Source: an uncultured Actinomycetota bacterium
GTDB lineage: Bacteria > Actinomycetota > Humimicrobiia > Humimicrobiales > Humimicrobiaceae
Length of the DNA stretch: 37,305 bases
Direction of reading: 5' to 3'
Assembly: GCA_964424685.1 (NCBI GenBank)
Contig: CAYRJH010000002.1
Coordinates: 32,263 to 69,567 of the forward strand
The notes under the pieces were generated by a model. The model was not told the origin of the DNA. It saw only the letters and a program-made list of their open reading frames with translations, and made no database searches. Below, piece after piece: positions 9,095-30,471 of the stretch (positions are counted from its first letter, which is position 1; each line of letters opens with the position of its first letter). The translations under genes and the position numbers were made by a program.

Positions 9095-10261
9095 ATGATA
9101 AAAAAATACATAATGACTCCCGGTCCTACGCCTATTTCAGAGGAAGTGCTGCTGGAGCATGCAAGACCCCTTATGCACCATAGATCTCCAGAGTTCTCAA
9201 AGATATTTATAGAAGTAACTGAAAAATTAAAAAAATTATTTAAAACTGAAAATGATGTGTTTATACTGACCTCATCGGGAACGGGTGCAATGGAAGCGAG
9301 TGTCGTTAATTTCTTTTCCGTAGGGGATAAGGTGCTGATAGCGAATATCGGAAACTTTGGGGAAAGATTCAAGAAAATCAGCACAAAGTTTGGATTGGAG
9401 GTTATCTCCCTTGATTATGAGTGGGGAGACTCTGCTGATCCCGATGATATTAAAAAAGCCCTGGATGACAATGCAGATATCAAGGGAGTCATGGTTCAGT
9501 TCAGTGAAACATCAACAGGTGCAATAAATGACATTAAAGAAATAGGAAGTATTGTAAAAAATTATCCTGCTATTTTGATAGTGGATGCTATAAGCGGTCT
9601 TGGAGCATCGGATCTTGAGACTGATGAATGGGGGCTTGATGTTGTAATAGGTGGTTCACAGAAAGCATTGAGCGCTCCTACAGGCGCTGCGTTTATAAGT
9701 GTCAGTGAAAAAGCCTGGAAACTTAATGAAAAGTCGAATGTCCCAAGGTTTTATTTTGATCTGGCAGCTGCAAGAAGTTATTCACAGAAAACACCGCCGC
9801 AGACACCCTGGACACCGGGGATATCAATAATAGTAGCCATGAATAAAGCTCTGGATATATTATTTGAGGAGGGACTGGAAAAAGTATTTGACAGGCACAG
9901 GATAATGGCGCTGTCCGCGCAAAAAGCAATAGAAAAATTGGGTCTTGAGCCCCTGGTTAAGGATAAAAACAAAAGAGGATTTTCTGTAACTTCCATTGTA
10001 GTTCCTGACGGAATGGATGCCAAAGAGATTACAAAAACAATGAGGGTAAAATACGGGGTGACTATTGCCGGAGGGCAGGGTAAGCTTGCCGGTAAGATCA
10101 TAAGGATAGGACATCTGGGGTATTTTGGAATATTTGATATTATTATTGCAATATCTGCACTGGAGATAACACTCAAGGAACTTGGATATGAATTTGAGAT
10201 AGGTTCCGGTATTGCGGAAGCAGAAAAGATTTTTATAGAAAATAATTATTTAAATCCCTGA
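9095..10261 (+). CDS. Class-V PLP aminotransferase (serine-pyruvate / phosphoserine aminotransferase type)
   Basis: The 388-aa ORF has the MTPGPTP N-terminus, SGTGAMEA, and the PLP-lysine context GGSQKALSAPTG. Its position directly upstream of serA suggests a phosphoserine aminotransferase role. That role is an inference. Confidence 0.75.
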   Translation: MIKKYIMTPGPTPISEEVLLEHARPLMHHRSPEFSKIFIEVTEKLKKLFKTENDVFILTSSGTGAMEASVVNFFSVGDKVLIANIGNFGERFKKISTKFGLEVISLDYEWGDSADPDDIKKALDDNADIKGVMVQFSETSTGAINDIKEIGSIVKNYPAILIVDAISGLGASDLETDEWGLDVVIGGSQKALSAPTGAAFISVSEKAWKLNEKSNVPRFYFDLAAARSYSQKTPPQTPWTPGISIIVAMNKALDILFEEGLEKVFDRHRIMALSAQKAIEKLGLEPLVKDKNKRGFSVTSIVVPDGMDAKEITKTMRVKYGVTIAGGQGKLAGKIIRIGHLGYFGIFDIIIAISALEITLKELGYEFEIGSGIAEAEKIFIENNYLNP

Positions 10262-10409
10262 CGTACTGTTAGAAAGAGAGTGTCTGGATTTTGGAAAATA
10301 TTGATAAGAAATTAGCAGGTACCGATGGGAAATAAAATATATAATTGATATAGTTTTATTATTTAATAATTATGAATAAGATATATATGGAATTAACAGG
10401 TGGTAAAAT

Positions 10410-11999
10410 ATGAATAAAAAAGTAATAATAACTGATGGTATTTCGGCTGAAGCAAAGAAAAAACTTGAAGAGCATTTTATTGTAGAGGAGAAGAAAGGAC
10501 TGACACCGGAAAAGCTTAAAGAAGAGATTAAAGGTTTTAATGCTATAATTATCAGAAGCGCCACAAAACTTACCGCTGATATTATTGAGGCTTCGAATAA
10601 GCTGGAAATTATCGGAAGAGCAGGTATAGGAGTTGACAATATCGATATTCCAGCGGCAACTAAAAAGGGCATTATTGTTGTTAATGCACCAACCAGTAAT
10701 GCCGTTACTGTTGCTGAGCATACCATTGCTTTGATGCTTTCACTTGCAAGAAAAATTCCAGAAGCAAATTTCACTCTAAAAAGCGGGAAGTGGGAGAAAT
10801 CAAAATTTAAAGGCATTGAGCTTGAGGGCAAAACGCTTGGAATAGTCGGGTTTGGACAAATAGGGGGCCTGGTTGCAAAAAAAGCTATAGGGCTGGGCAT
10901 GAAAGTAATTGCTTATGACCCGTTTGTATCAGAAGATAGATTCAGACAGCTTGAGATAAAAAAAGCCGGCAAGTTGGAAGATATTTATAGTGAAGCTGAT
11001 TTTATTAGTATTCATCTTCCAAAAAACAAAGATACTCTTGGAATGTTTAATAAGGCTGAGTTCTACAAGATGAAAAAAGGAACAATAATATTAAATGTTG
11101 CAAGGGGAGGAATTATTATTGAGAAAGATCTTGCTGAAGCTATAGAGGGGGGGCAGATAGGCGGAGCGGCGCTTGATGTCTATGAAACGGAACCATGCAT
11201 AGATTCCCCTGTTTTTAAATTGAACGAAGTGATTTGTACGCCTCATCTGGGCGCATCGACCACAGAAGCACAGGATAGAGCAGGAATTATAATTGCGGAC
11301 CAGGTTATAGACGTTCTTAACGGGAAAACTGCGGCTTTTCCGGTTAATGCGCCTGCTGTAAGGCCTGAACTTATGAGTATACTTTCGCCTTTCTTTGAAT
11401 TGTGTGAAAATCTCGGAAGCCTTTTTATAAATTTATTTGAGGGTAACCTCGATAGCTTAAAAGTAGGCTATTACGGTAAGATATCGGATTATGATGTTAG
11501 AATTCTAACATCAATGATACTGGTAAAAATACTGGAAAAATACTCGGCAGAAACTGTTAACCTGGTAAATGTAGACCTTTTGACCAGAGAAATGGGTCTT
11601 AAGGTAAAGGAAGTAAAAAGCAGCCAGTCAAAGGATTTTATAAATTTAATTACACTGGAGGGAAAAGGTAAAGATGGGGAATTTTCTATTTCAGGGACTA
11701 CTACAGGTAAAAAAGACACACCCCGGTTTATAGCCATTGATAAATTTGAAATAGATATGGTTCCTTCTAAATATATGGCGTTTATAAGATATGAGGATAT
11801 TCCCGGGCAGATTGGAAAGATAGGAACTGCTTTTGGCAAACTGAATGTAAATATTGCCTCAATGCATGTAGGCAGGAAGAAACTGAGCGGGGACGCAGTA
11901 ATGGGATTAAACCTGGATAACGAAGTAACTCCCGAAATGCTTGAGGAATTCAAGAAGTCATCAGGTTTTAAAAATATAAAGATAGTCAATCTTTATTAA
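10410..11999 (+). CDS. serA: D-3-phosphoglycerate dehydrogenase (long form with C-terminal ACT domain)
   Basis: The 529-aa ORF has GRAGIGVDNIDI, an NAD-binding GIVGFGQIGG and TPHLGAST. The C-terminal regulatory domain includes IPGQIGKIGTAFG. An AGGTGG RBS is present. Confidence 0.9.
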   Translation: MNKKVIITDGISAEAKKKLEEHFIVEEKKGLTPEKLKEEIKGFNAIIIRSATKLTADIIEASNKLEIIGRAGIGVDNIDIPAATKKGIIVVNAPTSNAVTVAEHTIALMLSLARKIPEANFTLKSGKWEKSKFKGIELEGKTLGIVGFGQIGGLVAKKAIGLGMKVIAYDPFVSEDRFRQLEIKKAGKLEDIYSEADFISIHLPKNKDTLGMFNKAEFYKMKKGTIILNVARGGIIIEKDLAEAIEGGQIGGAALDVYETEPCIDSPVFKLNEVICTPHLGASTTEAQDRAGIIIADQVIDVLNGKTAAFPVNAPAVRPELMSILSPFFELCENLGSLFINLFEGNLDSLKVGYYGKISDYDVRILTSMILVKILEKYSAETVNLVNVDLLTREMGLKVKEVKSSQSKDFINLITLEGKGKDGEFSISGTTTGKKDTPRFIAIDKFEIDMVPSKYMAFIRYEDIPGQIGKIGTAFGKLNVNIASMHVGRKKLSGDAVMGLNLDNEVTPEMLEEFKKSSGFKNIKIVNLY

Positions 12000-12127
12000 T
12001 TAGAAAAAGTAAAAGTTTTTAAAAATGCATTTTAATAAGGTATTATAAAAAGTTTTTTAATATTAAAAAAGATAACAGGGTAATTTAGTAATTTAAATAA
12101 AATAGAGCAAGAAGGTAAGTTAGCACT

Positions 12128-13648
12128 ATGGAGGATAAGAAAGAAAAAATTTATATATTTGATACAACACTGCGTGATGGTGAGCAGGCTCCCGGTATTC
12201 ACCTGAATACAAAGGAAAAATTGGAAATTGCCCGGCAGCTTGCAAAGTTAAATGTTGATATAATAGAAGCTGGCTTCCCAATATCATCCAAAAGTGACTT
12301 TAATTCTGTAAAGGAATTATCAAAAAAAATTAAAAACAGGAAAATAGCAGCTCTGGCAAGAGCAAATTTTAAGGATATAGAAATAGCCGGGGAAGCTCTT
12401 AAAGAAGCAGAACAGCCGGTAATTCATACTTTTATCTCTTCATCGGATATTCATCTTAAATATCAGTTAAAAAAAAGCAGGGAAGAAGTAATGGAGCTGG
12501 CAGGAGAAGCGGTAAAAAGAAGCCTTAAATATACTGATACGGTTGAATTTTCGGCTATGGATGCAACTAGAAGCGACCCTGTATTTCTGTGCAGGTTATT
12601 TGAGGTCGCCATTAAAAACGGAGCTAAAATTATAAATGTTCCGGATACGGTAGGATATACCATTCCGGATGAGTTCGGTAGAATGATTGAGTATATTTTT
12701 GAAAATACAGCAGGAATCGGAAATGTAATAGTAAGCGTTCACTGTCATAACGATCTCGGCCTGGCCGTTGCAAATTCACTCATGGCTGTAAAGTATGGTG
12801 CAAGACAGGTAGAATGTGCGGTAAATGGTCTTGGCGAGAGAGCCGGCAATGCATCGCTTGAAGAGATTGTAATGATTATAGATACCCGTAAAAAAGACCT
12901 TGGAGTATATACCGATATTAATATAAGTGAAATTACAAGGACAAGCAGTATCGTGAAATCATTAACGGGCTATGTTGTTGCGCCCAATAAAGCGATAGTG
13001 GGTAAAAATGCATTCAGTCATGAAGCCGGGATACATCAGGACGGGATGCTGAAAGACAGGTCAACCTATGAAATAATCAAGCCCGAAGATATTGGACTCA
13101 AATCATCAAAACTGGTAATGGGCAAACATTCGGGGAGGCATGCATTTGCAGAGAGGCTAACAGAGCTTGGCATACATCTGGCAGAAGATGATATGGAAAA
13201 GGCTTTCGAAAGATTTAAAGACCTTGCCGAAAAAAAAGGAGCTATAAATGATGAAGACATCAGGGCAATAGCGGAAAATGAAATGCGTGAAGTCACGGAA
13301 CATTTTTCACTTAAATATTACAGGGTCCAGAGCGGTTCGGATATAAGTGCGACTTCTACAATAGGGATAGAAATAAATGGGAAGGTGCATGAAGATTCTT
13401 CAGAAGGGGATGGTCCCGTAGACGCTTCATTTAAAGCAATTGATAAGATAGTAAAAATAAATGCAAAGTTAATTGAATATAACATAGAGGCCGTGTCCGG
13501 CGGTAAAGATGCGCTGGGGTCGGTTAAAGTGGTGGTGAGCACCAATGGCATAGAAGTAATGGGCAGCGGCATAAGTACGGATATAGTCGAAGCAAGCATA
13601 AAGGCATATATTGATGCAATGAATAGAATTATAGAAAATGAAGGATAA
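12128..13648 (+). CDS. leuA: 2-isopropylmalate synthase
   Basis: The 506-aa ORF has [28 protein letters not shown] and HEAGIHQDG, plus a C-terminal LeuA dimer/regulatory domain. Confidence 0.9.
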
Positions 13649-13677
13649 TTTTTAACCGGAGAGGAAATTTTAAAAAA

Positions 13678-14955
13678 GTGGACAGTAAAAACAAACCACA
13701 AACTATTGCACAGAAAATACTTGCATACCACTGCAGCAGAGACCATGTTTCAGAGGGTGAAATAATAAATGCAAATGTTGATATTGTGCTTGGGAATGAT
13801 ATTACACTTCCTTTAGCTATTGGAGAGTTTGATAAAATCAGTACGGGTAAAGTTTTTGACAGGGAAAAAGTTGTTGTAGTACCTGACCATTTTGCTCCAA
13901 ATAAGGACATAAAATCTGCCTGGCAGTGCAAGTTTATCAGGGAATTTGCACGGGAGCAGAATATTAAAAATTATTTTGAAGTAGGGAAAATGGGTATTGA
14001 ACATGCACTGCTTCCTGAGCTGGGGCTTGTACTGCCCGGAAACCTTGTGGCTGGAGCAGATTCCCATACCTGTACTTACGGTGCCCTAAACGCTGCATCA
14101 ACAGGAGTCGGAAGTACGGATGTGGCTGTTGCAATGGCTACAGGAAAATTATGGTTTATGGTTCCGCGAACTATTAAGTTTGTTTACAGCGGAGATTTGA
14201 AACAGTGGATAACAGGCAAGGACCTGATATTGTATACCATTGGCCTGATAGGTGTGGATGGCGCACTTTACAAATCCATGGAATTCAGCGGTCCTGCCGT
14301 AAGCAAACTATCTATGGATTCAAGATTTACAATGTCCAATATGGCTATAGAGGCGGGTGGAAAGTTTGGAATATTTGAGTTTGATGATAAAACAGAAGAA
14401 TTTTTAAAATCAAGATCTGACGGTAATTATAAAATATTCAAAAGTGATTATGATGCAGAATATGAAAAAATATACAATATAGACTGCTCGGATATAGAAC
14501 TCCAGGTAGCAGCTCCGCATCTTCCTTCAAACGCCAGAAACGCGAGGGATTTAGCTGATATAAAAATTGACCAGGTAGTAATAGGTTCCTGTACGAACGG
14601 AAGGATCGAAGACCTTAAGATTGCGGCAGAAATTTTAAAAAATAGGAAGGTTAATGATAATTTAAGAACTATAATAATTCCTGCTACCCAGAATATATAT
14701 CTCGAAGCATTAAAAAAAGGTTATATTGAAATATTTATAAATTCCGGTTGTGCCGTAAGTACTCCAACATGCGGGCCATGCCTGGGCGGACATATGGGCG
14801 TACTTGCAGAAGGAGAAAGGGCAGTGTCAACAACGAATAGAAATTTTGTAGGAAGGATGGGCCATCCGAAGAGCGAAGTGTATCTAAGCGGTCCTGCTGT
14901 TGCAGCCGCATCTGCCATAGTGGGAAGGATAGCAACACCCGGGGAGGTTATTTGA
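13678..14955 (+). CDS. leuC: 3-isopropylmalate dehydratase large subunit (short, aconitase-family type)
   Basis: The 425-aa ORF has a GTG start. Fe-S ligand contexts are ADSHTC, GSCTNGR and CGPCLGGH. Its stop overlaps the leuD start (TGATG). Confidence 0.9.
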
Positions 14956-15452
14956 TGATATTAAAGGAAAAAGTAATAAAGTACGGCGATAATATTAATA
15001 CAGATGTAATAATACCGGCCAGGTACCTCAATACTATAAGCGAAAATGAACTTGCCTCACATTGCTTTGAGGATATGGACAGTGGTTTTATAGAGAAAGT
15101 AAAAGAAAGAAAAATAATAGTGGCGGGCAGTAATTTCGGCTGCGGTTCTTCCAGGGAGCATGCCCCTCTTTCAATAAAAGCGAGTGGGGTTAAAGCAGTA
15201 ATAGCGGAATCATTTGCCCGTATATTCTTCAGGAATGCAATAAATATAGGGCTTCCTGTCATAGTAAGCGATAAAGCAAGCAGTCTTATAGATGACAGGG
15301 ATGAACTTGAAATAGATTTAAGCAGCGGTGAGATTAAAGATGTTACAAAAAATAAAGTTTTCAAGGTAAAACCGCTTCCTGATTTTATCCAGGGTATAAT
15401 AAAAAGCGGTGGTTATATAAATTTTACCCGGGAGAACATAAAAAAAAATTAG
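14955..15452 (+). CDS. leuD: 3-isopropylmalate dehydratase small subunit
   Basis: The motif GSNFGCGSSREHAP is present. I chose the ATG at 14955, which is 7 nt after GGGGAGG, rather than the track's TTG at 14952. Confidence 0.9.
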   Translation: MILKEKVIKYGDNINTDVIIPARYLNTISENELASHCFEDMDSGFIEKVKERKIIVAGSNFGCGSSREHAPLSIKASGVKAVIAESFARIFFRNAINIGLPVIVSDKASSLIDDRDELEIDLSSGEIKDVTKNKVFKVKPLPDFIQGIIKSGGYINFTRENIKKN

Positions 15453-15489
15453 CTTAAGGAATAATTTAATAACATATAAAAAGAAAAAA

Positions 15490-17076
15490 ATGAGTAGTGA
15501 ATTAAAAGATAAAATATACATACTGGATACGACTTTAAGAGACGGTGCCCAGAGGGCAGATATATCTTTTTCGGTCAATGACAAGCTGCAGCTTATTGAA
15601 AGATTTGATGATATCGGTATTGATTATATTGAAGCAGGGTTCCCTGCTTCAAATCCAAAGGAGATGGAACTATTTGAAAAGCTGAAGGAAAGGAAGTTCC
15701 AGTATTCTAAAATAGTTGCATTTGGGATGACAAGGTATAAAAACGTTAAGGTAGAGGATGATAGTAATATAAAACAGTTGATCCAGTCCGGAGTGGATGC
15801 CGTATGTATCGTGGGTAAAGCTTCTTCGCTCCATACCCTGAAAGTGATTGAAACAACCCTTGAGAATAATCTGGATATGATTTCAAGTTCTATAGAATAT
15901 TTAAAAAAATATTTTCCCGAAGTTATTTTTGATGCGGAGCATTTTTTTGACGGCTTCAAAGAAAATCCGGAATATGTGCTGGAGACATTAAGAGTAGCGA
16001 TGGAGGCGGGAGCAGATTATCTATGTCTCTGCGATACGAACGGGGGCATGCTTCCTGATGATGTCATAGATATAATAGATAAAGTTAAGAGGAAAATGAA
16101 GGCTACTCTTGGAGTGCATTTTCATAATGACAGCGGCTGTGCTGTTGCCAATACTGTAATAGCTGTAAAAAAAGGCATAAAGATGGTACACGGGACGATA
16201 AACGGTTATGGAGAAAGATGCGGTAACGCAGATCTGTGCCAGATAATTCCCAACCTGGAAATAAAATTAAAGAAAAGCTGCCTGAAGGAAGACAGTTTAA
16301 AACATTTGACCAATCTTTCAAGATTTGTGAGTGAGACTGCAAATCAAATTACTAATCCCGGGCAGCCCTTTGTAGGACGGAATGCATTCAGCCATAAGAG
16401 CGGTCTGCATGTAAGCGGTATAAGCAAATTGTCAACGGCATTTGAGCATGTCAGTCCCGAGACTGTCGGTAATACAAGAGAAATACTTATATCCGAGCTT
16501 TCCGGAAAGAAATCAATAATCCTGAGGGCAAAAGAATTTGGAATTAATCTTGAAAATGATTTAGAGAAGGTCAGTGAGATATTAAATAGAATTCAAAATC
16601 TGGAGCATAAGGGTTATCAGTTTGAAGCTGCTGATGGAAGTTTTGAACTGCTGGTTAAGGAAGTTGCAGGAATAAAAAAGAAATTTTTTAAACTGGAAAG
16701 CTTCAGGGTATTAAATGAGAAGAAGGAAAACGGCAGCATGATGTCCGAAGCTACGGTAAAAGTGCAGATAAACGGAAGCAGGATAATCGAAACAGCAGAA
16801 GGCAACGGTCCTGTTAATGCTCTGGATAGAGCTTTAAGAAAGGCGATTCAGAGCTGTTATCCTGCGCTGTCAAAAATAACCCTTACAGACTTTAAAGTCA
16901 GGGTACTGAATGAGAAGAGGGGTACCGAAGCGGTAGTAAGGGTTTTGATTGAATCGTCGGACGGCAAGAAGAGCTGGGGTACCATAGGAGTTTCAGAGAA
17001 TATAATCGAAGCCAGCTGGCAGGCTCTGGAAGACAGCGTTATATACGGACTCATGCATGTGGAAAATAGCGAATAA
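15490..17076 (+). CDS. cimA: (R)-citramalate synthase (LeuA-family paralogue)
   Basis: The 528-aa ORF has ILDTTLRDGAQRADISFS, HFHNDSGCAVANT and HKSGLHVSG, plus a C-terminal LeuA-type regulatory domain. The overall pattern matches the citramalate-synthase branch rather than LeuA. The substrate assignment is an inference. Confidence 0.75.
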   Translation: MSSELKDKIYILDTTLRDGAQRADISFSVNDKLQLIERFDDIGIDYIEAGFPASNPKEMELFEKLKERKFQYSKIVAFGMTRYKNVKVEDDSNIKQLIQSGVDAVCIVGKASSLHTLKVIETTLENNLDMISSSIEYLKKYFPEVIFDAEHFFDGFKENPEYVLETLRVAMEAGADYLCLCDTNGGMLPDDVIDIIDKVKRKMKATLGVHFHNDSGCAVANTVIAVKKGIKMVHGTINGYGERCGNADLCQIIPNLEIKLKKSCLKEDSLKHLTNLSRFVSETANQITNPGQPFVGRNAFSHKSGLHVSGISKLSTAFEHVSPETVGNTREILISELSGKKSIILRAKEFGINLENDLEKVSEILNRIQNLEHKGYQFEAADGSFELLVKEVAGIKKKFFKLESFRVLNEKKENGSMMSEATVKVQINGSRIIETAEGNGPVNALDRALRKAIQSCYPALSKITLTDFKVRVLNEKRGTEAVVRVLIESSDGKKSWGTIGVSENIIEASWQALEDSVIYGLMHVENSE

Positions 17077-17196
17077 GACTTTGAACGGATAAAATAACCC
17101 CTGCCAGAAAATAACCTGTTATCCGTAATAATAAATTTAAGAAGTGAAAACCATAAGGTATATCTATACAAGTTATAACAAAAAAGGAACCCTATT

Positions 17197-17613
17197 ATGG
17201 TATATGGTAAAAAGATAACTCTGTCCACAGAAGGATTTTCAGATATCAGGGATATTACAAGTGATGTGAAAAGTATTGTTTTAAAATCCGGCATAAAGGA
17301 TGGGCTTGTAAATATTTCTGTAATTGGTTCCACCGCATCAATTTCAACCATAGAATATGAGCCCGCTCTTGTTGAAGATGTACGCGACCAGCTGGAGGAG
17401 TTTGTCCCGAGCACCAGGCATACGCGGCACTCTCAGACATGGGGGGATGATAATGGATTCTCTCACATAAGGGCCACACTTATGGGTCCCGGAATTACCG
17501 TGCCGGTTTCAGCCGGTGGGTTAGTTTTAGGTACATGGCAGCAGATAGTTGTTATAGACCATGATAACAGGCCCCGCTCACGGGAAATATTTATACAGGT
17601 TATGGGAGAATAG
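17197..17613 (+). CDS. yjbQ: YjbQ/UPF0047 family protein (annotated in databases as secondary thiamine-phosphate synthase)
   Basis: The 138-aa ORF has the family signature NGFSHIRATLMGPGITVPVSAGGLVLGTWQQIVVIDHD. An AAGGA RBS is present. Confidence 0.8.
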   Translation: MVYGKKITLSTEGFSDIRDITSDVKSIVLKSGIKDGLVNISVIGSTASISTIEYEPALVEDVRDQLEEFVPSTRHTRHSQTWGDDNGFSHIRATLMGPGITVPVSAGGLVLGTWQQIVVIDHDNRPRSREIFIQVMGE

Positions 17614-17691
17614 CGGGAGTTTATATAAATATTATTATAATTTTATAATAATACGCTAAATAATAATTTAAAAAAGGCGATAGGAGTATCA

Positions 17692-18918
17692 ATGCTAACA
17701 GAAGATTTTGCCCGGAGAGTTCTAAAGGTTGAGGAAAGCCCTACGTTTGCACTGGAAAAAAAAGTGGATGAGCTTGATATTAAATTAAAACAGGAAGGCA
17801 GATCAGTAATAAGATTCGGTATCGGACAGCCTGATTTTAATACTCCTGAAAATATAAAGGATGCAGGCAAGAAAGCGATTGATGAGAATAAAACAAAATA
17901 TACTGCAAGTACCGGCATAAAGGAACTTAAAAGTGCAATCGTAGAAAAGTTTAAAAGAGACAATAATATTGATTATGAAACCTCTAATATTCTTGTCGGT
18001 AATGGTGCAAAGCATGTGCTGGATGATATTATGAGGGTTTTTGTCGGTCCCGGAGATAAAGTCATAATCCCAAAACCTTTCTGGGTAAGTTATGGCCAGC
18101 AGGTCATACTTTCCGAAGGAATTCCTGAATTTGTAGATTTTAGAGATGATTTAAAAATGGATATGGAGCATTTTGATCATGTTGTTTCAAAATCAGCCAG
18201 GGGTAAAGCTAGCGGAATCGGAAGTGGAAGAGCAAAGCTATTTATCTTAAACAGCCCCAGTAATCCAACAGGGATAGTCTATTCAAAAGCAGAACTTGAA
18301 GAGATTGGTAAAATCTGCCTTGAAAATAATATTTATATTATTGCCGATGAAGTTTATGAGAAGTTTTTGTATGGCAGTGCAGAGCACTACAGTATTGCAT
18401 CATTTAATGAAGAGTTAAAATCCATAACTATTACTGTAAATGCTGTATCAAAGACTTATTCAATGACCGGATGGAGAATAGGGTACTGCGGCGCCGGTAG
18501 TAAAATAATAGAACAGATGACCAAGGTACAGGACCAGTCAACATCTAATCCCTGTTCAATAGCGCAGTGGGCTGCCCTTGAAGCACTTAGCGGAAATCAG
18601 GATTCTGTTGAGCTGATGAGGAAAGAATATGAGAAAAGGAGAGATTATATTTACGCAAGGATTTCTTCAATAAATAGTATGAAATGCGCCCTTCCTGAAG
18701 GTGCTTTCTATATATTCCCGAAAGTATCCGGCTTTTTTAGAGGAAGGATAAAAAATTCGTTTGATTTTGCTGGTTTACTGCTGGAAGAGGCGAATGTTGC
18801 CGTAGTCCCCGGAGGAGCTTTCGGAGCAGATGAATATATAAGGATTAGCTACGCCACATCAATTCAAAATATTGAAGAAGGGTTAAACAGGATAGAGACA
18901 TTCTGCAGTAAAAATTAA
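17692..18918 (+). CDS. Class-I PLP aminotransferase (aspartate/aromatic aminotransferase type)
   Basis: The 408-aa ORF has NSPSNPTG and the PLP-lysine context SKTYSMTGWRIGY, plus VVPGGAFG. An AGGAG RBS is present. Confidence 0.85.
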   Translation: MLTEDFARRVLKVEESPTFALEKKVDELDIKLKQEGRSVIRFGIGQPDFNTPENIKDAGKKAIDENKTKYTASTGIKELKSAIVEKFKRDNNIDYETSNILVGNGAKHVLDDIMRVFVGPGDKVIIPKPFWVSYGQQVILSEGIPEFVDFRDDLKMDMEHFDHVVSKSARGKASGIGSGRAKLFILNSPSNPTGIVYSKAELEEIGKICLENNIYIIADEVYEKFLYGSAEHYSIASFNEELKSITITVNAVSKTYSMTGWRIGYCGAGSKIIEQMTKVQDQSTSNPCSIAQWAALEALSGNQDSVELMRKEYEKRRDYIYARISSINSMKCALPEGAFYIFPKVSGFFRGRIKNSFDFAGLLLEEANVAVVPGGAFGADEYIRISYATSIQNIEEGLNRIETFCSKN

Positions 18919-21467: not shown

Positions 21468-22247
21468 ATGAATAATTATATAAATAAAATAATAAATACA
21501 TTACTTAATAATTTTAAAGATGGAACTATAAATAAAGAAGAAGTAATATCAAAAATTAAAGAAATATATTTTGAAGATATCGGCTTTGCAAAAATAGACC
21601 ACCACCGTGGATTAAGAAGAGGTTTTCCGGAAGTAATATACGGAGCGGGGAAAACTCCTGAACAAATTTTAGGTATTGCAAAGAAAATATTAAATTATTC
21701 AAATATACTGTTAATAACAAGAACCACGGCTGAAGTATATAATTTATTAAAAAAAGAGATTAAAAACATTAAGTTTAATTTGGAATCAAATATTATATAT
21801 ACACTGCCTCATGTTCCCGATATTAAATTGAGTAAAGGGATAACTGTAATATGTGCGGGGACTTCAGATATAAGCGTAGCGGAAGAAGCAGCGCTGACGG
21901 CTTATTTGATGGGGAATAGGGTTGAAAGGATTTACGACGTAGGTGTAGCGGGCATACACAGGTTAATAAGTTTCAAAGATGAATTAAGTAAATCAAATGT
22001 AATTGTAGCAGTTGCCGGCATGGAAGGGGCTCTGCCCGGAGTCGTAAGTTCAATGGTAGACTGTCCGGTGATAGGCGTTCCGACCAGTGCCGGGTATGGT
22101 GCAAGTTTTGGCGGGATATCTGCCATGCTGACCATGCTAAACTCCTGCAGTCCGGGAATCCTTGTGGTAAACATTGATAATGGGTTCGGGGCAGGTTATT
22201 CAGCAGGAATTATTAATAAGTTAACCAGGCAAAAAAGACCTGATTAA
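21468..22247 (+). CDS. larB: Nickel-pincer cofactor biosynthesis protein LarB (PurE-like carboxylase/hydrolase)
   Basis: The 259-aa ORF has GFAKIDHHRGLRRGFPEVIYGAGKT followed by a PurE-like domain (VICAGTSDISVAEEA...AGMEGALPGVV...VIGVPTS). Confidence 0.85.
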   Translation: MNNYINKIINTLLNNFKDGTINKEEVISKIKEIYFEDIGFAKIDHHRGLRRGFPEVIYGAGKTPEQILGIAKKILNYSNILLITRTTAEVYNLLKKEIKNIKFNLESNIIYTLPHVPDIKLSKGITVICAGTSDISVAEEAALTAYLMGNRVERIYDVGVAGIHRLISFKDELSKSNVIVAVAGMEGALPGVVSSMVDCPVIGVPTSAGYGASFGGISAMLTMLNSCSPGILVVNIDNGFGAGYSAGIINKLTRQKRPD

Positions 22248-24126: not shown

Positions 24127-27100
24127 ATGGAAAAAGGAAAATTTGTTCATCTGCATGTCCACAGCGAGTACTCTTTATTGGATGGTGCTTCAAGGATAGC
24201 AAAATTAATAGAGAGAGCCTGCGAGTTTAATATGCCAGCTTTAGCATTAACAGATCATGGAGTTATGTATGGATCTATTGAATTCTATAGCCAGGCTAAG
24301 AAATCAGGGATAAAACCAATAATAGGATGTGAAGTTTACCTGGCGCCAAAAAGCAGGCGGGATAAGCAGATAGAAAGAGATAAAAAGGAAGAAACTTCCT
24401 ATCATCTGACTTTGCTGGCTGAAAGTAACCGGGGTTATAAAAATCTTATTAGGCTGGTAAGCCTCGGATTTTTAGAGGGTTTCTATTATAAACCGAGAGT
24501 TGATAAAGAATTATTAAGGGAATACAGTGAAGGTATAATCGCTTTGAGCGGCTGTATCTCGGGTGAAATTCCAAAATATATAATTTCAGGACGGATTCAA
24601 GAAGCAAAGAGAATTTTAGAGGAATATGTGGAAATTTTTGATAAAGGCAGCTTCTTTTTGGAATTACAGGATTCCGGTATTCCCCAACAAAAAATAGTAA
24701 ATAAGACCCTGGCAGAATTATCTTTAGAATATAAAATTCCGCTCGTAGCCACAAATGATGTTCATTATGTAGATAAGAAAGATAGTAAAGCTCATGATGT
24801 CCTGCTCTGCATTCAAACTGGTTCCACAATTAATGAAGCCGGAAGATTGAAATTCCCTACAGAAGAATATTATTTCAAAGACTACCGCCAGATGAAAGAG
24901 CTTTTTAAAGAGTTTCCAGGAGCAATCGAAAATACACTGGAAATTGCCGGGAGGTGTAATTTAAATTTGAAATTTGATATGAATTTAATACCTTCCTTTC
25001 ATGTTTCCGATAATACTACACCGGATGAGTATTTAAAAAAGTTGTGTTATGAAGGTGTAAAAAATAAATATGGTGAAATTACTGAAGTTGTCAATGTGAG
25101 AATAAACAGGGAACTGGAAGTTATAAAGAAAATGGGATTTTCAGATTACTTTTTAATTGTATGGGATCTTATTAATTTTGCTAAAAATAATAACATAAGG
25201 GTAGGGCCTGGGAGAGGTTCAGCTGCGGGGAGCATAGTTTCTTATCTTTTAGGAATAACAGACATAGAACCTTTAAAATACGGCCTGTTATTTGAGAGAT
25301 TCTTGAACGAAGAGCGCAATAGTATGCCTGACATAGATATAGATTTTTGTTATGAAAAAAGAGATGATGTCATCAAGTATGTTACAAAAAAATACGGCGA
25401 CAGGAGAGTTGCCCAGCTAATTACTTTCGGGACAATGGCGGCAAGACAGGCTATAAGAGATGCGGGAAGAGTAATGGAAATGCCGTATGCGGATGTGGAC
25501 CGTATAGCAAAAATGGTTCCGATGGAATTGAATGTAACTATCAAAAATTCGTTAGAGATAGTCCCGGAGTTAAATGAAATCTATGAGAATAATGAAAAGG
25601 TAAAAGAGATAATTGATACCGCGATTTCACTCGAGGGTATATCAAGGCAGGATTCAATTCATGCTGCCGGAGTTGTCATATCTTCGGAAGACCTTTACAA
25701 CTACACACCGCTGCAGAAAGAAAATGAAGGTGATATTGTAACCCAGTATAAAATGGAGGATATCCAGAAAATAGGGCTTTTAAAAATGGATTTTCTGGGG
25801 TTAAAAACACTTTCATTAATAGATAAAAGTCTTTTCTTAATAAAGAAAACCAAAAATCTGGAAATAGATATCAATAATATAAACCCCGATGATAAAAAGA
25901 CTTTTAACATGCTAAGCGAGGGGGAATGTCTGGGAGTATTTCAGCTTGAAAGTTCAGGAATGCGGGAACTGGTAATAAACCTCAAGCCGACAAGATTTGA
26001 AGATTTAATAGCTCTCCTGGCCTTATACAGGCCCGGTCCTCTTCAAAGCGGAATGGTGCGGGATTTTGTAGAAAATAAGAATGGAAGAAAACAAATAAAT
26101 TATCTTCATCCTTCTCTTGAGAAAATTCTTGAAAGTACCTATGGAATTATCCTATACCAGGAACAGGTTATGGGAATAGCGTCTGAGCTTGCAGGTTTCA
26201 GTATGTCAGAAGCGGATATTTTAAGAAGTGCCATAAGTAAGAAAAAAAGAGGCCTACTTTCCAGGCAAAAAAGCAAATTTATAGAAGGTGCCAGAAGAAG
26301 AGGGATAGATGAGAAAATCTCAATAAAAATTTTTGAACTTGTAAATAATTTTGCTGAATACGGATTTAATAAATCCCATAGTGCAGCATATGCAATGATT
26401 TCATATCAGACCGCTTATCTTAAAGCTAATTATCCGGTGGAGTTTATGGCGGCGCTGCTCAGTATACGAATGGGTAGCCAGGAAAAAGTAGCCCAGTATG
26501 TCAATGAGACCAGAAGAATGGGTATCAGAGTTTTGCCTCCAGACATTAATGAAAGTTTTACCGACTTTACCGTGGTGGAAGAGTCGATCAGATTCGGATT
26601 ATCGGCCGTCAAGAATGTGGGAACCAATGTTATTGAATGTATAGAAAAAGTAAGGAAAAAAGGCGGTAAATTTAAAAATTTTATTGATTTTTGTGAAAGG
26701 GTTGACAGCAGCGTATTAAATAAAAAAACTCTTGAAAGTTTAATAAAAAGCGGAACTTTCGATTCTATGGGTTTAAGCAGGAAATACTTGCTGGAGAATT
26801 ATGAGAGAATAGTAGAAGAAGTTTTAAAGATTAGGAAAGACAGGGATATCGGCCAGTATTCACTATTTGAAGTAAATGGAAGTCAAAAAAAAGAGGTATT
26901 GCCGGATGGCTCATACCAGACAGAAGATAAGTTCAGGGAATTTTCAAAAAAAGAATTATTAAATTTCGAAAAAGAGATGCTGGGCCTTTATATTTCCGGG
27001 CACCCCCTGTTTGAATATGAAGATTCACTCTCACGGTTGACTCCTGTTGAGGTGCTGGGAAGTCTTGAGGACGCTGCAAATGTTGCGATTGGCGGGGTAA

Positions 27101-27612
27101 TAAGCAGGATTAAAACCGTATATACAAAAAAAGACCAGCAGATGTGCTTTATAGAGTTAGAAGATGTTTCCGATAGTGTGGAAGTAATCGTATTTCCTTC
27201 AATATTTATAAAATTCAGAGAAATTATTGCCGAAGATAAAATTGTAAAAATTAAAGGTAAACTTGACAAAAAAGAAGACCAGTTAAAAATTATAGCTAAT
27301 GAATTTGAGGAAATGGAAAAAGATAAAAAAGTTGATAAAAGCCAGAAAGAGCTGATAAGCGAAACAAATAAAAAAGTAGTTTTTAAAATGAAGAGAGACG
27401 ATATGGATAAAGATTTTATAAACCGGTTTTATGATTTATTAAAAAAATTCCCGGGATTTAATGAAGTTGAATTCAGAATAACAGATAAAGATGGTGAAGA
27501 TATAGAAAGGACCTATAAGCTTCCATCAGGGTATAGAATAGATTTAAATGAGTCACTTGAGAAAAGTTTGAGGGAAATGTTTTCAGATAAGATCAATTGG
27601 GATATAGTTTAA
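24127..27612 (+). CDS. dnaE: DNA polymerase III alpha subunit
   Basis: The 1161-aa ORF has the PHP domain motif HLHVHSEYSLLDG, then GPGRGSAAGS and the catalytic PDIDIDF. An OB-fold and a C-terminal region are present. No intein-sized insertion is seen. Confidence 0.95.
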   Translation: MEKGKFVHLHVHSEYSLLDGASRIAKLIERACEFNMPALALTDHGVMYGSIEFYSQAKKSGIKPIIGCEVYLAPKSRRDKQIERDKKEETSYHLTLLAESNRGYKNLIRLVSLGFLEGFYYKPRVDKELLREYSEGIIALSGCISGEIPKYIISGRIQEAKRILEEYVEIFDKGSFFLELQDSGIPQQKIVNKTLAELSLEYKIPLVATNDVHYVDKKDSKAHDVLLCIQTGSTINEAGRLKFPTEEYYFKDYRQMKELFKEFPGAIENTLEIAGRCNLNLKFDMNLIPSFHVSDNTTPDEYLKKLCYEGVKNKYGEITEVVNVRINRELEVIKKMGFSDYFLIVWDLINFAKNNNIRVGPGRGSAAGSIVSYLLGITDIEPLKYGLLFERFLNEERNSMPDIDIDFCYEKRDDVIKYVTKKYGDRRVAQLITFGTMAARQAIRDAGRVMEMPYADVDRIAKMVPMELNVTIKNSLEIVPELNEIYENNEKVKEIIDTAISLEGISRQDSIHAAGVVISSEDLYNYTPLQKENEGDIVTQYKMEDIQKIGLLKMDFLGLKTLSLIDKSLFLIKKTKNLEIDINNINPDDKKTFNMLSEGECLGVFQLESSGMRELVINLKPTRFEDLIALLALYRPGPLQSGMVRDFVENKNGRKQINYLHPSLEKILESTYGIILYQEQVMGIASELAGFSMSEADILRSAISKKKRGLLSRQKSKFIEGARRRGIDEKISIKIFELVNNFAEYGFNKSHSAAYAMISYQTAYLKANYPVEFMAALLSIRMGSQEKVAQYVNETRRMGIRVLPPDINESFTDFTVVEESIRFGLSAVKNVGTNVIECIEKVRKKGGKFKNFIDFCERVDSSVLNKKTLESLIKSGTFDSMGLSRKYLLENYERIVEEVLKIRKDRDIGQYSLFEVNGSQKKEVLPDGSYQTEDKFREFSKKELLNFEKEMLGLYISGHPLFEYEDSLSRLTPVEVLGSLEDAANVAIGGVISRIKTVYTKKDQQMCFIELEDVSDSVEVIVFPSIFIKFREIIAEDKIVKIKGKLDKKEDQLKIIANEFEEMEKDKKVDKSQKELISETNKKVVFKMKRDDMDKDFINRFYDLLKKFPGFNEVEFRITDKDGEDIERTYKLPSGYRIDLNESLEKSLREMFSDKINWDIV

Positions 27613-27641
27613 ATATTTAAAGGTATGCCGGGAGGGATCAT

Positions 27642-28736
27642 ATGCATGATTTAAAATTTGCAGTGCTGGGTGCGGGTCACGGAGGGAAAGCAATAGCTGC
27701 GCATCTTGCAATAAAGGGATATACGGTTAATCTGTATAACAGAACATTTTTACGGATTCAACCAATAAAAAAGATGAAGGGGATAGAGCTTGAAGGTGAG
27801 ATTAAAGGTTTTGGCAAGCTTAATCTGGTGACCAGTGATATAGAGAAAGCAGTTAAGGGTATGGATATAATCATGGTCGTGGTACCGGCAGACGGCCATT
27901 ATTCGATTGCTAAAACATGCGCGTCTTTTTTAAATGAAAAGCAGATTGTAGTTTTAAATCCCGGAAGGACATGCGGCGCACTTGAATTTTTAAATGTATT
28001 GCGGAACGAGGGCAATAATAAAGATGTCACCGTAGCAGAAGCCCAGACTTTTATTTATGCAAGCAGGGGTATGGGCCCGGCCACAGCAAGAATATTCAGG
28101 ATAAAACAGGCAATACCGGTAGCGGCTATACCATCCAGGAAGACTGAAATGGTCGTAAAAAAGTTAAATGATGCATTTCCTGAATTTATCCCGGCTGCAA
28201 GCTCTATTGAAACAAGTTTTAACAATATGGGCGCAGTGTTCCACCCTTCAATTACAATACTTAATTTAAGCAGGATCGAGTCTACTATGGGAAATTTCCA
28301 GTTCTATATAGAGGGTGTCACACAATCTGTGGCAAAAATCCTTGAATCGGTTGATGAGGAAAGAGTAATTGTTGCTAGAAAGTTAAAGTGTGCCAGGATA
28401 TACTCCGCCATTGAATGGTTATCAATGGCTTATAATGTAGTGGAAGATAATTTATTTGATGCCATACACAGCAACCCCGGTTACGTAGGTATCATGGCCC
28501 CGATAACCATAAATGTCCGGTATATAACCGAAGATGTTCCCATGAGTTTAGTCCCGATTTCTGAATTTGGCAAAGCGCTCGGGGTAGAAACAAGAGTAAT
28601 TGATTCCCTTATCAATATAGCTAATTCCATATTTAAAAGAGATTTCAGGAGCACCGGCCGCAATCTTAAAAGGCTGGGATTAGAAGGATTAAACTTGGAA
28701 CAGATGAGGAGTATATTTATCAAAGGAAGGAAGTAG
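27642..28736 (+). CDS. NAD(P)-dependent opine dehydrogenase family protein (octopine/nopaline DH superfamily), substrate unknown
   Basis: The 364-aa ORF has the dinucleotide fold FAVLGAGHGGKAIAAHLAIKGY. VVPADGHYSIA, VLNPGRTCGALEF and FQFYIEGVT line up by eye with the Arthrobacter opine dehydrogenase. A GGAGGG RBS is present. The gene starts 29 nt after the dnaE stop. Confidence 0.8.
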   Translation: MHDLKFAVLGAGHGGKAIAAHLAIKGYTVNLYNRTFLRIQPIKKMKGIELEGEIKGFGKLNLVTSDIEKAVKGMDIIMVVVPADGHYSIAKTCASFLNEKQIVVLNPGRTCGALEFLNVLRNEGNNKDVTVAEAQTFIYASRGMGPATARIFRIKQAIPVAAIPSRKTEMVVKKLNDAFPEFIPAASSIETSFNNMGAVFHPSITILNLSRIESTMGNFQFYIEGVTQSVAKILESVDEERVIVARKLKCARIYSAIEWLSMAYNVVEDNLFDAIHSNPGYVGIMAPITINVRYITEDVPMSLVPISEFGKALGVETRVIDSLINIANSIFKRDFRSTGRNLKRLGLEGLNLEQMRSIFIKGRK

Positions 28737-28746
28737 TTTTCAAGAC

Positions 28747-30378
28747 ATGAAGAAAATACTCGGCGCTTCTATAGGGAGCTGCATACATATTGCAGGTATC
28801 TTGAATTTTTTAAACCTGGCCGGCAAATATGGCTATAGAACTAGATTTGTGGGCTCTGCCTGCACTGTAGATAAATTAAAAGAAAATATAGACAGCTTTA
28901 AACCTGATATAGTGGCGGTGAGTTACAGGCTATCACCGGAAAGCGTTCTTCCCGTGTTTAAGGAACTAAAAGAGAAAATAGCCAAAAAATTAAAAAATGA
29001 AAAAATAGAGCTTATACTTGGGAGCACAAAACCGGTAGCTGAAATAGGTAAAAAACTGGATTTATTTGATGTTATTTTTACCGGTGAAGAAAGTATTGAA
29101 GAAATTGAAAGTTATTTAAGTAAAAAGAAAATAAAAATCAAAGACAGTATTCCTCCCCAGGATATTCTGGAAAGAGTCAGATATAAAAAACCTTTTCCTG
29201 TAATAAGGCATCATTTTGGAAGGCCGACTTTAAGCGAAACAATAAAAGGGGTAAAAGAGATTTCATCAAGCGGACTTCTTGATGTGATATCTATTGGACC
29301 TGACCAGAATACCCAGGAATTCTTTTTTTACCCTGAAAAAATGAACGAGAATCAGGACGGAGCGGGAGGGGTCCCATTAAGAAGTATTGATGATTTTAAG
29401 AGCCTTTATGAAGCATCAAGAACCGGTAATTATCCGATGCTGCGGTGCTACAGTGGAACAAATGATATTATAATGATGGCAGAAGTTCTTCTGGATAATA
29501 TCAAAAATGCGTGGTGTGCCGTGCCGCTCTGCTGGTACAATGAACTGGATAATAGAAGCGGAAGAAAATTGGAAGAATCGATAGCTGAAAATCAATCAGT
29601 AATGAAATGGCATGCTGAAAGAAATATACCGGTGGAAGTTAACGAATCACATCACTGGAGCCTGCGGTATTCTCCAGATTCTATTGCAGTAGCTGCCGCA
29701 TATATTGCTGCTTATAATGCTAAAATGATGGGAGTTAAAACGTATATATCACAATATATGTTTAATACTCCTCCGGAAACTTCTTTTACAATGGATCTGG
29801 CGAAGATGCTTGCGAAAATAGAATTAATAGAATCTCTACATGATGGCAATTTTATGACACTCAGACAGACAAGGTCGGGATTATACAGTTACCCGCCTGA
29901 TTTTGATGAGAGTAAGGGCCAGCTTGCTTCTTCTACGCTGCTCCAGATGCAGCTGAACCCGGATATCTTGCATGTTGTTGCATATTGTGAGGCAGATCAT
30001 GCCGCAAAACCCGGGGATATTATAGAGAGTGTTAAAATAGTAAATAAAGTAATGGATAATTATGTTTATGGTTGTCCTGATATGAAATTGGATGAAAAAG
30101 TAAGATTAAGAAAAGAGGAGCTGATTTTAGATGCGACCATGATTATAGAAAAGTTAAAAATGCTCGACAGGGAAAAGGAATTTGAGGATCCTCTTATATC
30201 TCCATCAATAATATCAAAGGCAATAAAGAAAGGCATACTTGATGCGCCGCACTTATGCGGTGTAAAGGCTGCAAGCGGGACTATAAGAACAATGTTTATT
30301 GACGGTAAAATCATGGCTGTTAATGAAAATGGCAGACCTATTACGGAAAAAGAAAGGCTTGATAAAATTTCAATATAA
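28747..30378 (+). CDS. Uncharacterised fusion protein: an N-terminal B12-binding-like domain (CxHxxG variant) followed by a glutamate-mutase-E-like barrel
   Basis: The 543-aa ORF starts 10 nt after the preceding gene. The N-terminal ~130 aa resemble GlmS/MutS (ILGASIGSCIHIAGILNFL...VGS...DIVAVSYRL). The rest resembles GlmE/MutE by eye (LRCYSGTNDIIMMAEVL, ERNIPVEVNESHHW, VAYCEADHAAKP, KKGILDAPHLCG). The homology is recalled from memory and was not searched. Confidence 0.5.
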   Translation: MKKILGASIGSCIHIAGILNFLNLAGKYGYRTRFVGSACTVDKLKENIDSFKPDIVAVSYRLSPESVLPVFKELKEKIAKKLKNEKIELILGSTKPVAEIGKKLDLFDVIFTGEESIEEIESYLSKKKIKIKDSIPPQDILERVRYKKPFPVIRHHFGRPTLSETIKGVKEISSSGLLDVISIGPDQNTQEFFFYPEKMNENQDGAGGVPLRSIDDFKSLYEASRTGNYPMLRCYSGTNDIIMMAEVLLDNIKNAWCAVPLCWYNELDNRSGRKLEESIAENQSVMKWHAERNIPVEVNESHHWSLRYSPDSIAVAAAYIAAYNAKMMGVKTYISQYMFNTPPETSFTMDLAKMLAKIELIESLHDGNFMTLRQTRSGLYSYPPDFDESKGQLASSTLLQMQLNPDILHVVAYCEADHAAKPGDIIESVKIVNKVMDNYVYGCPDMKLDEKVRLRKEELILDATMIIEKLKMLDREKEFEDPLISPSIISKAIKKGILDAPHLCGVKAASGTIRTMFIDGKIMAVNENGRPITEKERLDKISI

Positions 30379-30398: not shown

Positions 30399-30430
30399 AA
30401 TTAATGTAAAATAAAAACATTAATTATTTT
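30399..30430 (+). terminator. Hairpin plus T-run after the mutase-like gene
   Basis: AATTAATGT (30399-30407) pairs with ACATTAATT (30417-30425) around a 9-nt loop, followed by ATTTT. The stem is AT-rich, so its stability is moderate. Confidence 0.5.
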
Positions 30431-30471
30431 GAAATTATAAAATTTAATACTTTTTTAAAACTGATGCAGTA

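Follow-up and report, generated by a model that had tools for sequence, protein, structure and literature searches.

A conserved gene pair of an opine dehydrogenase and a single-chain, glutamate-mutase-like protein with a Cys-x-His cobalt-ligand motif: a putative B12-dependent carbon-skeleton mutase module

What is the role of two adjoining genes that follow dnaE in an uncultured actinobacterium, one encoding an opine dehydrogenase and the other a protein resembling both subunits of glutamate mutase joined in a single chain? The genes, here named ORF1 and ORF2 (open reading frames 1 and 2), lie in a stretch of 37,305 nucleotides (nt) from an uncultured Actinomycetota bacterium (GenBank assembly GCA_964424685.1, contig CAYRJH010000002.1, positions 32,263 to 69,567), the whole of which is called the window. 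A first-pass annotation had read the two genes as a unit that may couple a carbon-skeleton rearrangement to an NAD(P)H-dependent step. The module is a conserved, functionally uncharacterised one, placed as a variant among the B12-dependent carbon-skeleton mutases, and the existence of such an operon has already been noticed. It appears on balance probable, if only just, that the co-translated pair encodes a B12-dependent carbon-skeleton mutase of a separate subfamily together with an opine dehydrogenase acting on an amino-dicarboxylate.

ORF1 belongs to the opine dehydrogenase family, as had been annotated. The protein matches Pfam Octopine_DH (PF02317) with an E value of 1.8e-44 and 151.8 bits (cut-off 30), its N-terminus also matches NAD_Gly3P_dh_N and NAD_binding_2, and it aligns end to end with the Arthrobacter N-(1-D-carboxyethyl)-L-norvaline dehydrogenase, CENDH (PDB 1bg6; E 4.8e-79, 39.7% identity over 350 columns). 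The catalytic residues His202, Arg292 and Asp297 of CENDH correspond to H201, R293 and D298 of ORF1, which are invariant, along with the GxGxxG Rossmann motif (G10, G12, G15), in 131 of 131 full-length dehydrogenases encoded beside ORF2 relatives. Arg109 is likewise invariant among these partner dehydrogenases and is Ala at the equivalent position of CENDH, a hint that the substrate may be an acidic amino acid carrying an extra negative charge. ORF1 is predicted to condense an amino acid reductively with a 2-oxo acid.

The N-terminal part of ORF2 was found to be a B12-binding-type domain. Its residues 3-119 match Pfam B12-binding over the full length of the family (E 9.4e-7), the AlphaFold model contains five strands alternating with five helices up to residue 125, and searches of the PDB and NCBIfam weakly matched it to B12 domains from OraE, KamE and corrinoid proteins. 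The same Pfam family is matched by 25 of 32 diverse relatives at E <= 0.01, and two relatives, P0027 (35.2 bits) and P0030 (32.9 bits), exceed its cut-off. In a MAFFT alignment with GlmS, the smaller subunit of glutamate mutase (reference sequence identical to PDB 1i9c_A), C12 falls on Asp14, H14 on the cobalt ligand His16, G17 on Gly19, S59 on Ser61 and G92-S93 on the GG pair. ORF2, with its ligand motif G-S-C12-I-H14-I-A-G17, thus departs from the signature DxHxxG...SxL...GG at three points, Asp being replaced by Cys12, SxL by S-Y-R-L and GG by G-S; the earlier description of the motif as C-I-H-I-A-G, with GS for GG, is borne out.

The first-pass annotation had also asked how far this CxHxxG motif is kept. 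All of 30 relatives, at identities as low as 61%, keep C12, H14 and G17, and Cys occupies the position of the motif Asp in 146 of 159 locus copies (Asp in 9) as well as in 25 long representatives down to ~36% identity. His14, Gly17 and Ser59 are invariant from the clade of ORF2 to relatives ~41% identical. The GG pair is retained in the wider family (consensus FGGTxP), and remote clades carry NDPHTxG or DAHTLG, that is, the canonical DxHxxG.

The remainder of the protein, residues ~140-543, had been likened by eye to the barrel subunit of glutamate mutase, GlmE, and a structural match was found for it. With the AlphaFold model of ORF2 (mean predicted local distance difference test score 84.5, predicted template-modelling score 0.73), Foldseek returned the glutamate mutase E chains as the top PDB entries, 6h9e_B (E 5.5e-16) and 1cb7_B (6.1e-16), with template-modelling scores of 0.56-0.64 and 15-16% identity to the ORF2 barrel. 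Lysine 5,6-aminomutase (1xrs_A) and ornithine 4,5-aminomutase (3kow_A) followed at E ~1e-10, and coenzyme-A-dependent mutases and dihydropteroate synthase barrels formed a third tier at ~1e-6 (dihydropteroate synthase ~3e-6). The earlier proposal of a homologue that joins GlmS and GlmE, in this order, in one chain is supported by Pfam, by the model with Foldseek and by the profile alignment.

The correspondence of residues was taken from an hhalign alignment between a profile of 32 family members and a GlmE sequence that differs from 1cb7_B by one residue; the alignment is colinear over 347 columns (GlmE residues 66-441), and it was used cautiously, for residue correspondence only, as its probability is 2%. 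All four segment pairs earlier matched by eye with the E subunit recur in it. E415 of ORF2, at least 90% conserved, is aligned with GlmE Glu330, which contacts the adenosyl ribose in GlmE. E266 is aligned with Glu171, which we take from the 1CB7 literature to bind glutamate together with Arg66, Arg100 and Arg149. The conserved barrel positions include R154-H-H156, D186-Q-N188, Y235, D268, R270, E297, N299-E300, H302-H303-W304, Q336, R376, H409 and E415. Within the family, Met_asp_mut_E (PF06368) is matched by 4 of the 32 relatives at E <= 0.01, with values of ~1e-5 to 1e-6 in P0027, P0030 and P0131; the last (27.5 bits) is the sole individually scanned protein above the cut-off of 26.6 bits. 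A narrow hidden Markov model of clostridial GlmE gave nothing useful against the family.

The two genes form a unit well beyond the window. ORFs were called and clustered in 165 loci, 159 of them with a mutase-like ORF; only two general clusters emerged, the mutase-like gene and the opine dehydrogenase, and no third universally conserved gene was present in the 165 loci. The pair is linked in 136 of the 159 loci, in both gene orders and in several phyla. The dehydrogenase gene lies immediately upstream of the mutase-like gene in 98 loci, immediately downstream in 34 and one gene away in 4; no dehydrogenase was found in 23, and 16 of these are at contig ends. Many junctions are overlaps of 1 or 4 nt. 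The pairing persists in clades 29-33% identical to ORF2 (loci L168, L169, L166), whose partner dehydrogenases are 35%, 30% and 26% identical to ORF1, diverging in step with the mutases.

Among these remote relatives, P0195 (DAHTLG type) is preceded at a distance of 12 nt by an Octopine_DH gene, and P0176 is flanked by an Octopine_DH gene and a gene of the D-Ala-D-Ala-ligase (Ddl) type. P0170 (NDPHTEG type; L166, 3063-11706) lies within a sugar-modification cluster that includes Octopine_DH, with neighbours encoding an L-amino-acid-ligase-type ATP-grasp enzyme, a sugar-transfer ATP-grasp enzyme, an SDR protein, an aldo-keto reductase, a DegT aminotransferase and an FdtA-like protein; the cluster further holds glycosyltransferases and Bac_transf. 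Its composition suggests that an unusual amino-acid-derived acyl group may be placed on an amino sugar. As a separate observation, the partner dehydrogenase appears split or truncated in three loci: L013 (4636-5203) gives two tblastn pieces, and L144 and L162 each have a pair of neighbouring ORFs. A pseudogene or an error of assembly or frame may account for each case.

The family is large and widely distributed. A word-indexed search with ORF2 returned 6,255 proteins, the best 120 of which are all at least 62% identical; the named ones among those 120 come from Actinomycetota metagenome-assembled genomes, including Candidatus Hydromicrobium and Humimicrobiaceae. An exhaustive search of 50%-identity representatives gave 661 clusters (146 below 1e-30), and scans of genomes and metagenomes added 160 further loci. 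A search of a plasmid collection returned no copy. Loci occur in Actinomycetota, Bacillota (Paramaledivibacter, Wukongibacter, Thermosediminibacter, Fervidicola, Symbiobacterium), Fusobacteriaceae (Fusobacteriota), Aminicenantales, Armatimonadota and Firestonebacteria. The module also occurs in Archaea, since some family contigs encode a TATA-binding protein (L096, L113, L120, L155) and the contig of L169, with P0176, carries TFIIS/RPB9-type zinc-ribbon genes. In the archaeal loci the mutase-like protein has ~580 amino acids and its gene is upstream of the dehydrogenase; an AsnB-like gene lies nearby on the opposite strand in L096, L113 and L120 and directly adjoins the mutase gene in the latter two.

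Several family members are fused to further domains. P0157 and P0159, of the CxHxxG type, carry a complete MutL/GlmL reactivase domain (E 7e-76 and 2e-82), and P0153 is a third MutL fusion, without the N-terminal domain; the three proteins have 1226, 1266 and 826 amino acids, respectively. To our knowledge, MutL serves solely as a helper of B12 mutases, and the Cys variant therefore probably keeps adenosylcobalamin; the fusions are the best indirect sign arguing for this. In L082 and L083 the fusion gene comes after genes for oligopeptide ABC ATPases and for an AAT protein (C45 acyltransferase); these two contigs carry no opine dehydrogenase. P0131 is fused to a glutathione-synthetase/RimK-type ATP-grasp domain and is flanked by Octopine_DH and Peptidase_C26 genes. 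P0140 (L085, 163-4105) has a Peptidase_M15_3 domain as its fusion partner, and overlapping genes for LeuCD-type aconitase large and small subunits lie downstream of it.

Some neighbours recur beside the pair. A distant ATP-grasp enzyme of the Ddl family was found in 16 loci (Dala_Dala_lig_C 1e-30 to 1e-41; best PDB matches Ddl, ~1e-25), and an AsnB-type amidotransferase (Asn_synthase) in 14, archaeal ones included, at times between both genes. An alanine-racemase-like gene occurs in four clusters and Peptidase_C26 near the pair in three. An isocitrate/isopropylmalate dehydrogenase-family gene lies directly upstream of the opine dehydrogenase in L097 (4395-5600) and in the near-identical L098. 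What these neighbours have in common is a predicted action on amide bonds of carboxylates, either making or breaking them, and a biosynthetic reading, in which the pair would make a multi-carboxylate building block, is favoured on this account.

The folds, the motif variant and its conservation, the spread of the family, the fusions and the gene linkage are observed. From them a mechanism can be proposed, in which B12 use, radical chemistry, substrate class and direction of reaction are all predicted. The Rossmann domain of ORF2 would bind a corrinoid in the base-off/His-on mode through His14, with Cys12 replacing the Asp partner, and both the substrate and the adenosyl group would sit in the GlmE-like barrel. 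The reaction would start with homolysis of the Co-C bond and lead to a 1,2-shift between the linear and the branched form of an amino- or hydroxy-dicarboxylate, comparable to the conversion of glutamate to 3-methylaspartate. ORF1 would carry out a neighbouring step: it would use NAD(P)H to condense an amino acid reductively with pyruvate or another 2-oxo acid, or would cleave such a product in the reverse reaction. The equilibrium of glutamate mutase lies on the side of glutamate. In the preferred biosynthetic order the mutase would act first and yield a thermodynamically disfavoured branched amino acid, which the dehydrogenase would trap as an N-(1-carboxyalkyl) product, thus pulling the equilibrium forward; in many lineages an adjoining Ddl-like ligase or AsnB-like amidotransferase might then join or amidate a carboxylate of the product. 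This order is favoured because of that equilibrium and because ligases and amidotransferases often adjoin the pair.

Glutamate mutase also slowly turns 2-hydroxyglutarate into 3-methylmalate, and a route of this kind is suggested by the neighbours in L085, L097 and L098; it is regarded as a minor variant only, because the partner keeps the full catalytic set of an opine dehydrogenase.

Several observations weigh against a B12-dependent mutase paired with a biosynthetic dehydrogenase. The B12-binding match of ORF2 reaches 29.1 bits, just under the cut-off of 32.1 bits, and we know of no characterised B12 enzyme with Cys for the Asp of the His-Asp pair. Residues 140-543 have no match in Pfam, Met_asp_mut_E included; phmmer and profile searches of PDB sequences did not reach GlmE and gave only weak matches to B12 domains; and the low hhalign probability has been given above. 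In that alignment, at 2% probability, GlmE Arg66, Arg100 and Arg149 fall on His156, Gln190 and Tyr235; the substrate need not be glutamate, because these glutamate-binding arginines are unmatched by arginines in ORF2, and the invariant Arg154 and Arg233 sit two residues upstream of two such equivalents, on the same strands, so that an arginine claw might still be present. Reactivase, adenosyltransferase and cobalamin genes are absent from the window and do not recur beside the pair in the 165 loci, and the earlier statement that no GlmL/MutL reactivase or methylaspartate ammonia-lyase (methylaspartase) gene lies in the window holds. Only a minority of loci have the accessory genes, and the remaining neighbours are of mixed kinds (Lgt, Lnt, a PBP5-type carboxypeptidase, isopropylmalate-dehydrogenase-like and LeuCD-like genes, MFS transporters). 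Finally, the opine might be formed first and then rearranged, or the pathway might run in the catabolic direction.

Much of this could also be accounted for if the cofactor had been lost, the Rossmann domain being structural or regulatory and the barrel performing non-radical lyase, hydratase or epimerase chemistry, possibly with a bound metal. The Asp to Cys change in the ligand motif, the GG to GS change in the clade of ORF2, the B12-binding score under the cut-off, the absence of reactivase and cobalamin genes nearby and the invariant His-rich barrel (H155, H156, H302, H303, H409, H502) speak for such a protein. However, the invariance of His14, Gly17 and Ser59 down to ~41% identity is hard to explain without a cofactor, relatives of the CxHxxG type are fused to MutL reactivase domains, and sister clades with the canonical DxHxxG are likewise linked to opine dehydrogenase. 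A metal cluster is also unlikely: the barrel residues C234, C257 and C414, considered as iron-sulphur or metal ligands, vary in the wider family, and this candidate was ruled out. Loss of the cofactor is thus judged unlikely, although it is the strongest of the competing explanations.

An ordinary glutamate mutase in fused form, converting L-glutamate to (2S,3S)-3-methylaspartate, with the dehydrogenase replacing methylaspartase in a catabolic or isoleucine-precursor step, is considerably less probable. GlmE is the closest solved structure, E266 is aligned with GlmE Glu171, the window contains many genes for the synthesis of amino acids (ilv, leu, ser, his), and LeuCD- or isopropylmalate-dehydrogenase-like genes adjoin the relatives in L085, L097 and L098. 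On the other hand, identity to GlmE is only 15-16%, the family stands apart from PF06368, with few and weak matches, the three substrate arginines are unaligned, and methylaspartase, mesaconase and citramalate lyase do not recur beside the pair. Because only a single actinobacterial clade shares the dnaE and his-operon synteny, it was rejected as a functional clue.

A corrinoid methyltransferase, with the B12 domain as carrier of a methyl group that a barrel-bound substrate would receive or give up, is very improbable. Some database records of the family are named methionine synthase, profile matches lead to the B12 domains of 4jgi, 1y80 and 7xcn (E 0.035-0.29), and pterin-binding-type barrels appear in Foldseek at ~3e-6. 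Searches of Pfam and NCBIfam at E <= 1, however, gave no homocysteine-binding, pterin-binding, B12 cap or activation domain, GlmE ranks about ten orders of magnitude above the dihydropteroate synthase barrels, the MutL fusions indicate adenosylcobalamin chemistry, and the partner gene encodes an opine dehydrogenase instead of an enzyme that donates or accepts methyl groups. Least credible of all is a pyridoxal phosphate (PLP)- and B12-dependent aminomutase like ornithine 4,5- or lysine 5,6-aminomutase, whose relocated amine the dehydrogenase would oxidise as in the Orr-OraSE-Ord system: the Foldseek matches to 1xrs_A and 3kow_A (~1e-10), the best NCBIfam and PDB sequence matches of the N-terminal domain (KamE, OraE) and the alanine-racemase-like gene in four loci speak for it, but GlmE is the better structural match, the PLP Lys of OraE, 11 residues past the ligand His, is Ala25 in ORF2, a position not kept as Lys in the family, with the nearby Lys27 unconserved, and the partner is of the opine type, not a diamino-acid dehydrogenase.

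The layout of the locus is given in Table 1. The ORF coordinates and the spacings of 29 and 10 nt noted before were all reproduced from the sequence. The gap of 29 nt between the dnaE stop and the ATG of ORF1 (27642) holds the GGGAGGG, and 10 nt separate the stop codon of ORF1 (TAG, 28734-28736) from the ATG of ORF2 (28747). The AAGGAAGGAAG tract is a possible ribosome-binding site of ORF2 that might serve coupled translation, because gaps of at most 10 nt or overlaps are typical for the gene pair elsewhere.

Table 1. Coordinates of the gene pair and of adjoining features in the window
Feature	Position	Strand	Basis or remark
dnaE	24127-27612	+	Stop codon 27610-27612; Pfam domains confirmed
GGGAGGG, Shine-Dalgarno-like	27630..27636	+	5 nt upstream of ORF1 start; read from sequence
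ORF1, 364 amino acids, CENDH-type NAD(P)H-dependent opine dehydrogenase	27642..28736	+	Pfam, PDB 1bg6 match
Purine-rich AAGGAAGGAAG tract, 3' end of ORF1	28723..28733	+	13 nt before ORF2 start; read from sequence
ORF2, 543 amino acids, single-chain GlmS+GlmE-like putative adenosylcobalamin-dependent mutase	28747..30378	+	Pfam, model, Foldseek, hhalign
ORF2 residues 1-128, five-stranded B12-binding-type Rossmann domain	28747..29130	+	Pfam, model
C12-I-H14-I-A-G17 codons, variant of DxHxxG cobalt-ligand motif	28780..28797	+	Alignment, conservation
ORF2 residues ~140-543, GlmE-like TIM barrel and C-terminal helical/beta segment	29164..30375	+	Foldseek, hhalign
A/U-rich inverted repeat, 9-bp stem, 9-nt loop (30399-30425), then UAUUUUG	30399..30432	+	Fold -5.1 kcal/mol, z -1.15

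The A/T-rich spacer of 135 nt between ORF2 and hisZ (30514) holds the inverted repeat, which had been called a hairpin terminator. This claim is weak: the folding energy of the short A/U stem is indistinguishable from that of shuffled sequence, and a terminator scan of the window reported none on the + strand. The repeat is at most a weak terminator.

All sizeable ORFs of the window (> about 200 amino acids) are on the + strand, and GC skew is positive across all 1-kb bins, like a long leading-strand segment; the G+C content is 30-34% in the first 5 kb and 36-43% at 5-21 kb. Rfam and tRNA scans of the entire window were empty; therefore no cobalamin riboswitch is present, and neither a riboswitch nor a T-box precedes the ilv, leu and his genes.

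Other genes of the window were identified in passing. At 787-4405, consecutive genes encode BshC (Rossmann-like_BshC and CC_BshC), a PIG-L deacetylase and a GT4 glycosyltransferase, a trio that looks like the bacillithiol biosynthesis set bshC-bshB-bshA. The closest relatives of the genome are labelled Actinomycetota, a phylum usually linked to mycothiol. The run at 4912-18918 has the order ilvD, ilvB, ilvN, class-V aminotransferase, serA, leuA, leuC, leuD and a second HMGL/LeuA_dimer synthase, possibly a citramalate synthase, and ends with UPF0047 and a class I/II aminotransferase; ilvC and leuB were not found within the window. At 21468-22247, flanked by genes for an H+-pyrophosphatase and a PilB-type ATPase, a protein of 259 amino acids has an AIR-carboxylase (AIRC) domain confined to its C-terminal half (residues 125-252), which we take to be the layout of LarB-type enzymes of nickel-pincer cofactor synthesis.

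An operon of this kind has been described. In the genome paper of Halothermothrix orenii from 2009, an octopine dehydrogenase and a cobalamin-binding protein were reported to form an operon, and its role was called unknown, consistent with the earlier failure to place the pair in any known pathway; within Thermotogales, the operon was reported for Petrotoga and Thermosipho (PMC2626281). In the Thermotoga clade, MetH and ribonucleotide reductase are the sole B12 enzymes, whereas several B12-binding proteins occur in other Thermotogales clades (PMC3509894). Petrotoga and Thermosipho belong to the latter and not to the Thermotoga clade, which fits the operon reported for them. A dehydrogenase of Thermoanaerobacter X514, Teth514_2108, was up-regulated in an ethanol-adapted strain (PMC3751872). 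Prior experimental characterisation of the family, the possibility of which the first-pass annotation had raised, was not encountered: no functional study of the gene pair was found in a literature search whose coverage of subscription journals was thin.

About a dozen reactions of adenosylcobalamin-dependent isomerases are known. If the reading of the pair as a B12-dependent mutase and its dehydrogenase is true, a further B12 isomerase family, with thousands of members in many anaerobic phyla and an unexpected partner enzyme, would be added. A bolder proposal, to which somewhat less than an even chance is given, is a large adenosylcobalamin mutase family with a Cys-x-His ligand motif that catalyses a new B12 rearrangement, with the opine dehydrogenase as partner and a product destined for attachment by ATP-grasp or AsnB-type enzymes. 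The rearrangement may act on an N-(carboxyalkyl) amino acid (opine) or on an amino- or hydroxy-dicarboxylate other than glutamate, and its product may be attached to cell-envelope, glycan or solute acceptors. The exchange of Cys for Asp beside the cobalt-ligand His would bear on how the His-Asp pair tunes Co-C reactivity. The assignment corrects a widespread mis-annotation of such proteins as 'methionine synthase' or generic 'B12-binding domain protein' and offers a testable hypothesis on the operon whose role was left unexplained in 2009. If, on the contrary, ORF2 works without B12, it would be a case of a cofactor domain that has outlived its cofactor.

Compared with known systems, ORF1 shares the Rossmann motif and the catalytic triad with CENDH (EC 1.5.1.28, Arthrobacter sp. 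1C, PDB 1BG6), which differs in having Ala for the Arg109 of the partner set, and the partner dehydrogenases are encoded beside a mutase-like gene. MetH has only the B12-binding Rossmann domain in common with ORF2; the homocysteine, folate, cap and reactivation domains are missing, and an identity as MetH was rejected as mis-annotation. The aminomutases OraSE and KamDE (3KOW, 1XRS), the second-best structural match, share the B12 Rossmann domain, the TIM barrel and a dehydrogenase after the mutase in the pathway, and differ in the PLP carried on Lys (Ala25 in ORF2) and in their reversed domain order. The genes Hore_09740/Hore_09750 of H. orenii are a pair of the ORF1/ORF2 type, matched by description only; their cobalamin-binding protein was described as distantly similar to methionine synthase, and the GlmE-like barrel, the CxHxxG motif, the MutL and ATP-grasp fusions and the archaeal and actinobacterial members were unrecognised there (PMC2626281). 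The operon pairing itself is not new, having been noticed in 2009. The closest relative is glutamate mutase, GlmS/GlmE (MutS/MutE), from Clostridium cochlearium and C. tetanomorphum (EC 5.4.99.1; 1CB7, 1I9C, 6H9E), which likewise combines a B12 Rossmann domain with a TIM barrel and shares the ligand His, the next Gly, the Ser motif and a Glu330 equivalent to E415. It consists of two subunits, whereas ORF2 is one chain with the B12 domain N-terminal; it has Asp in the motif where ORF2 has Cys, and barrel identity is low, with the substrate arginines unaligned. While glutamate mutase is associated with GlmL and methylaspartase, ORF2 and its relatives have an opine dehydrogenase as their neighbour instead.

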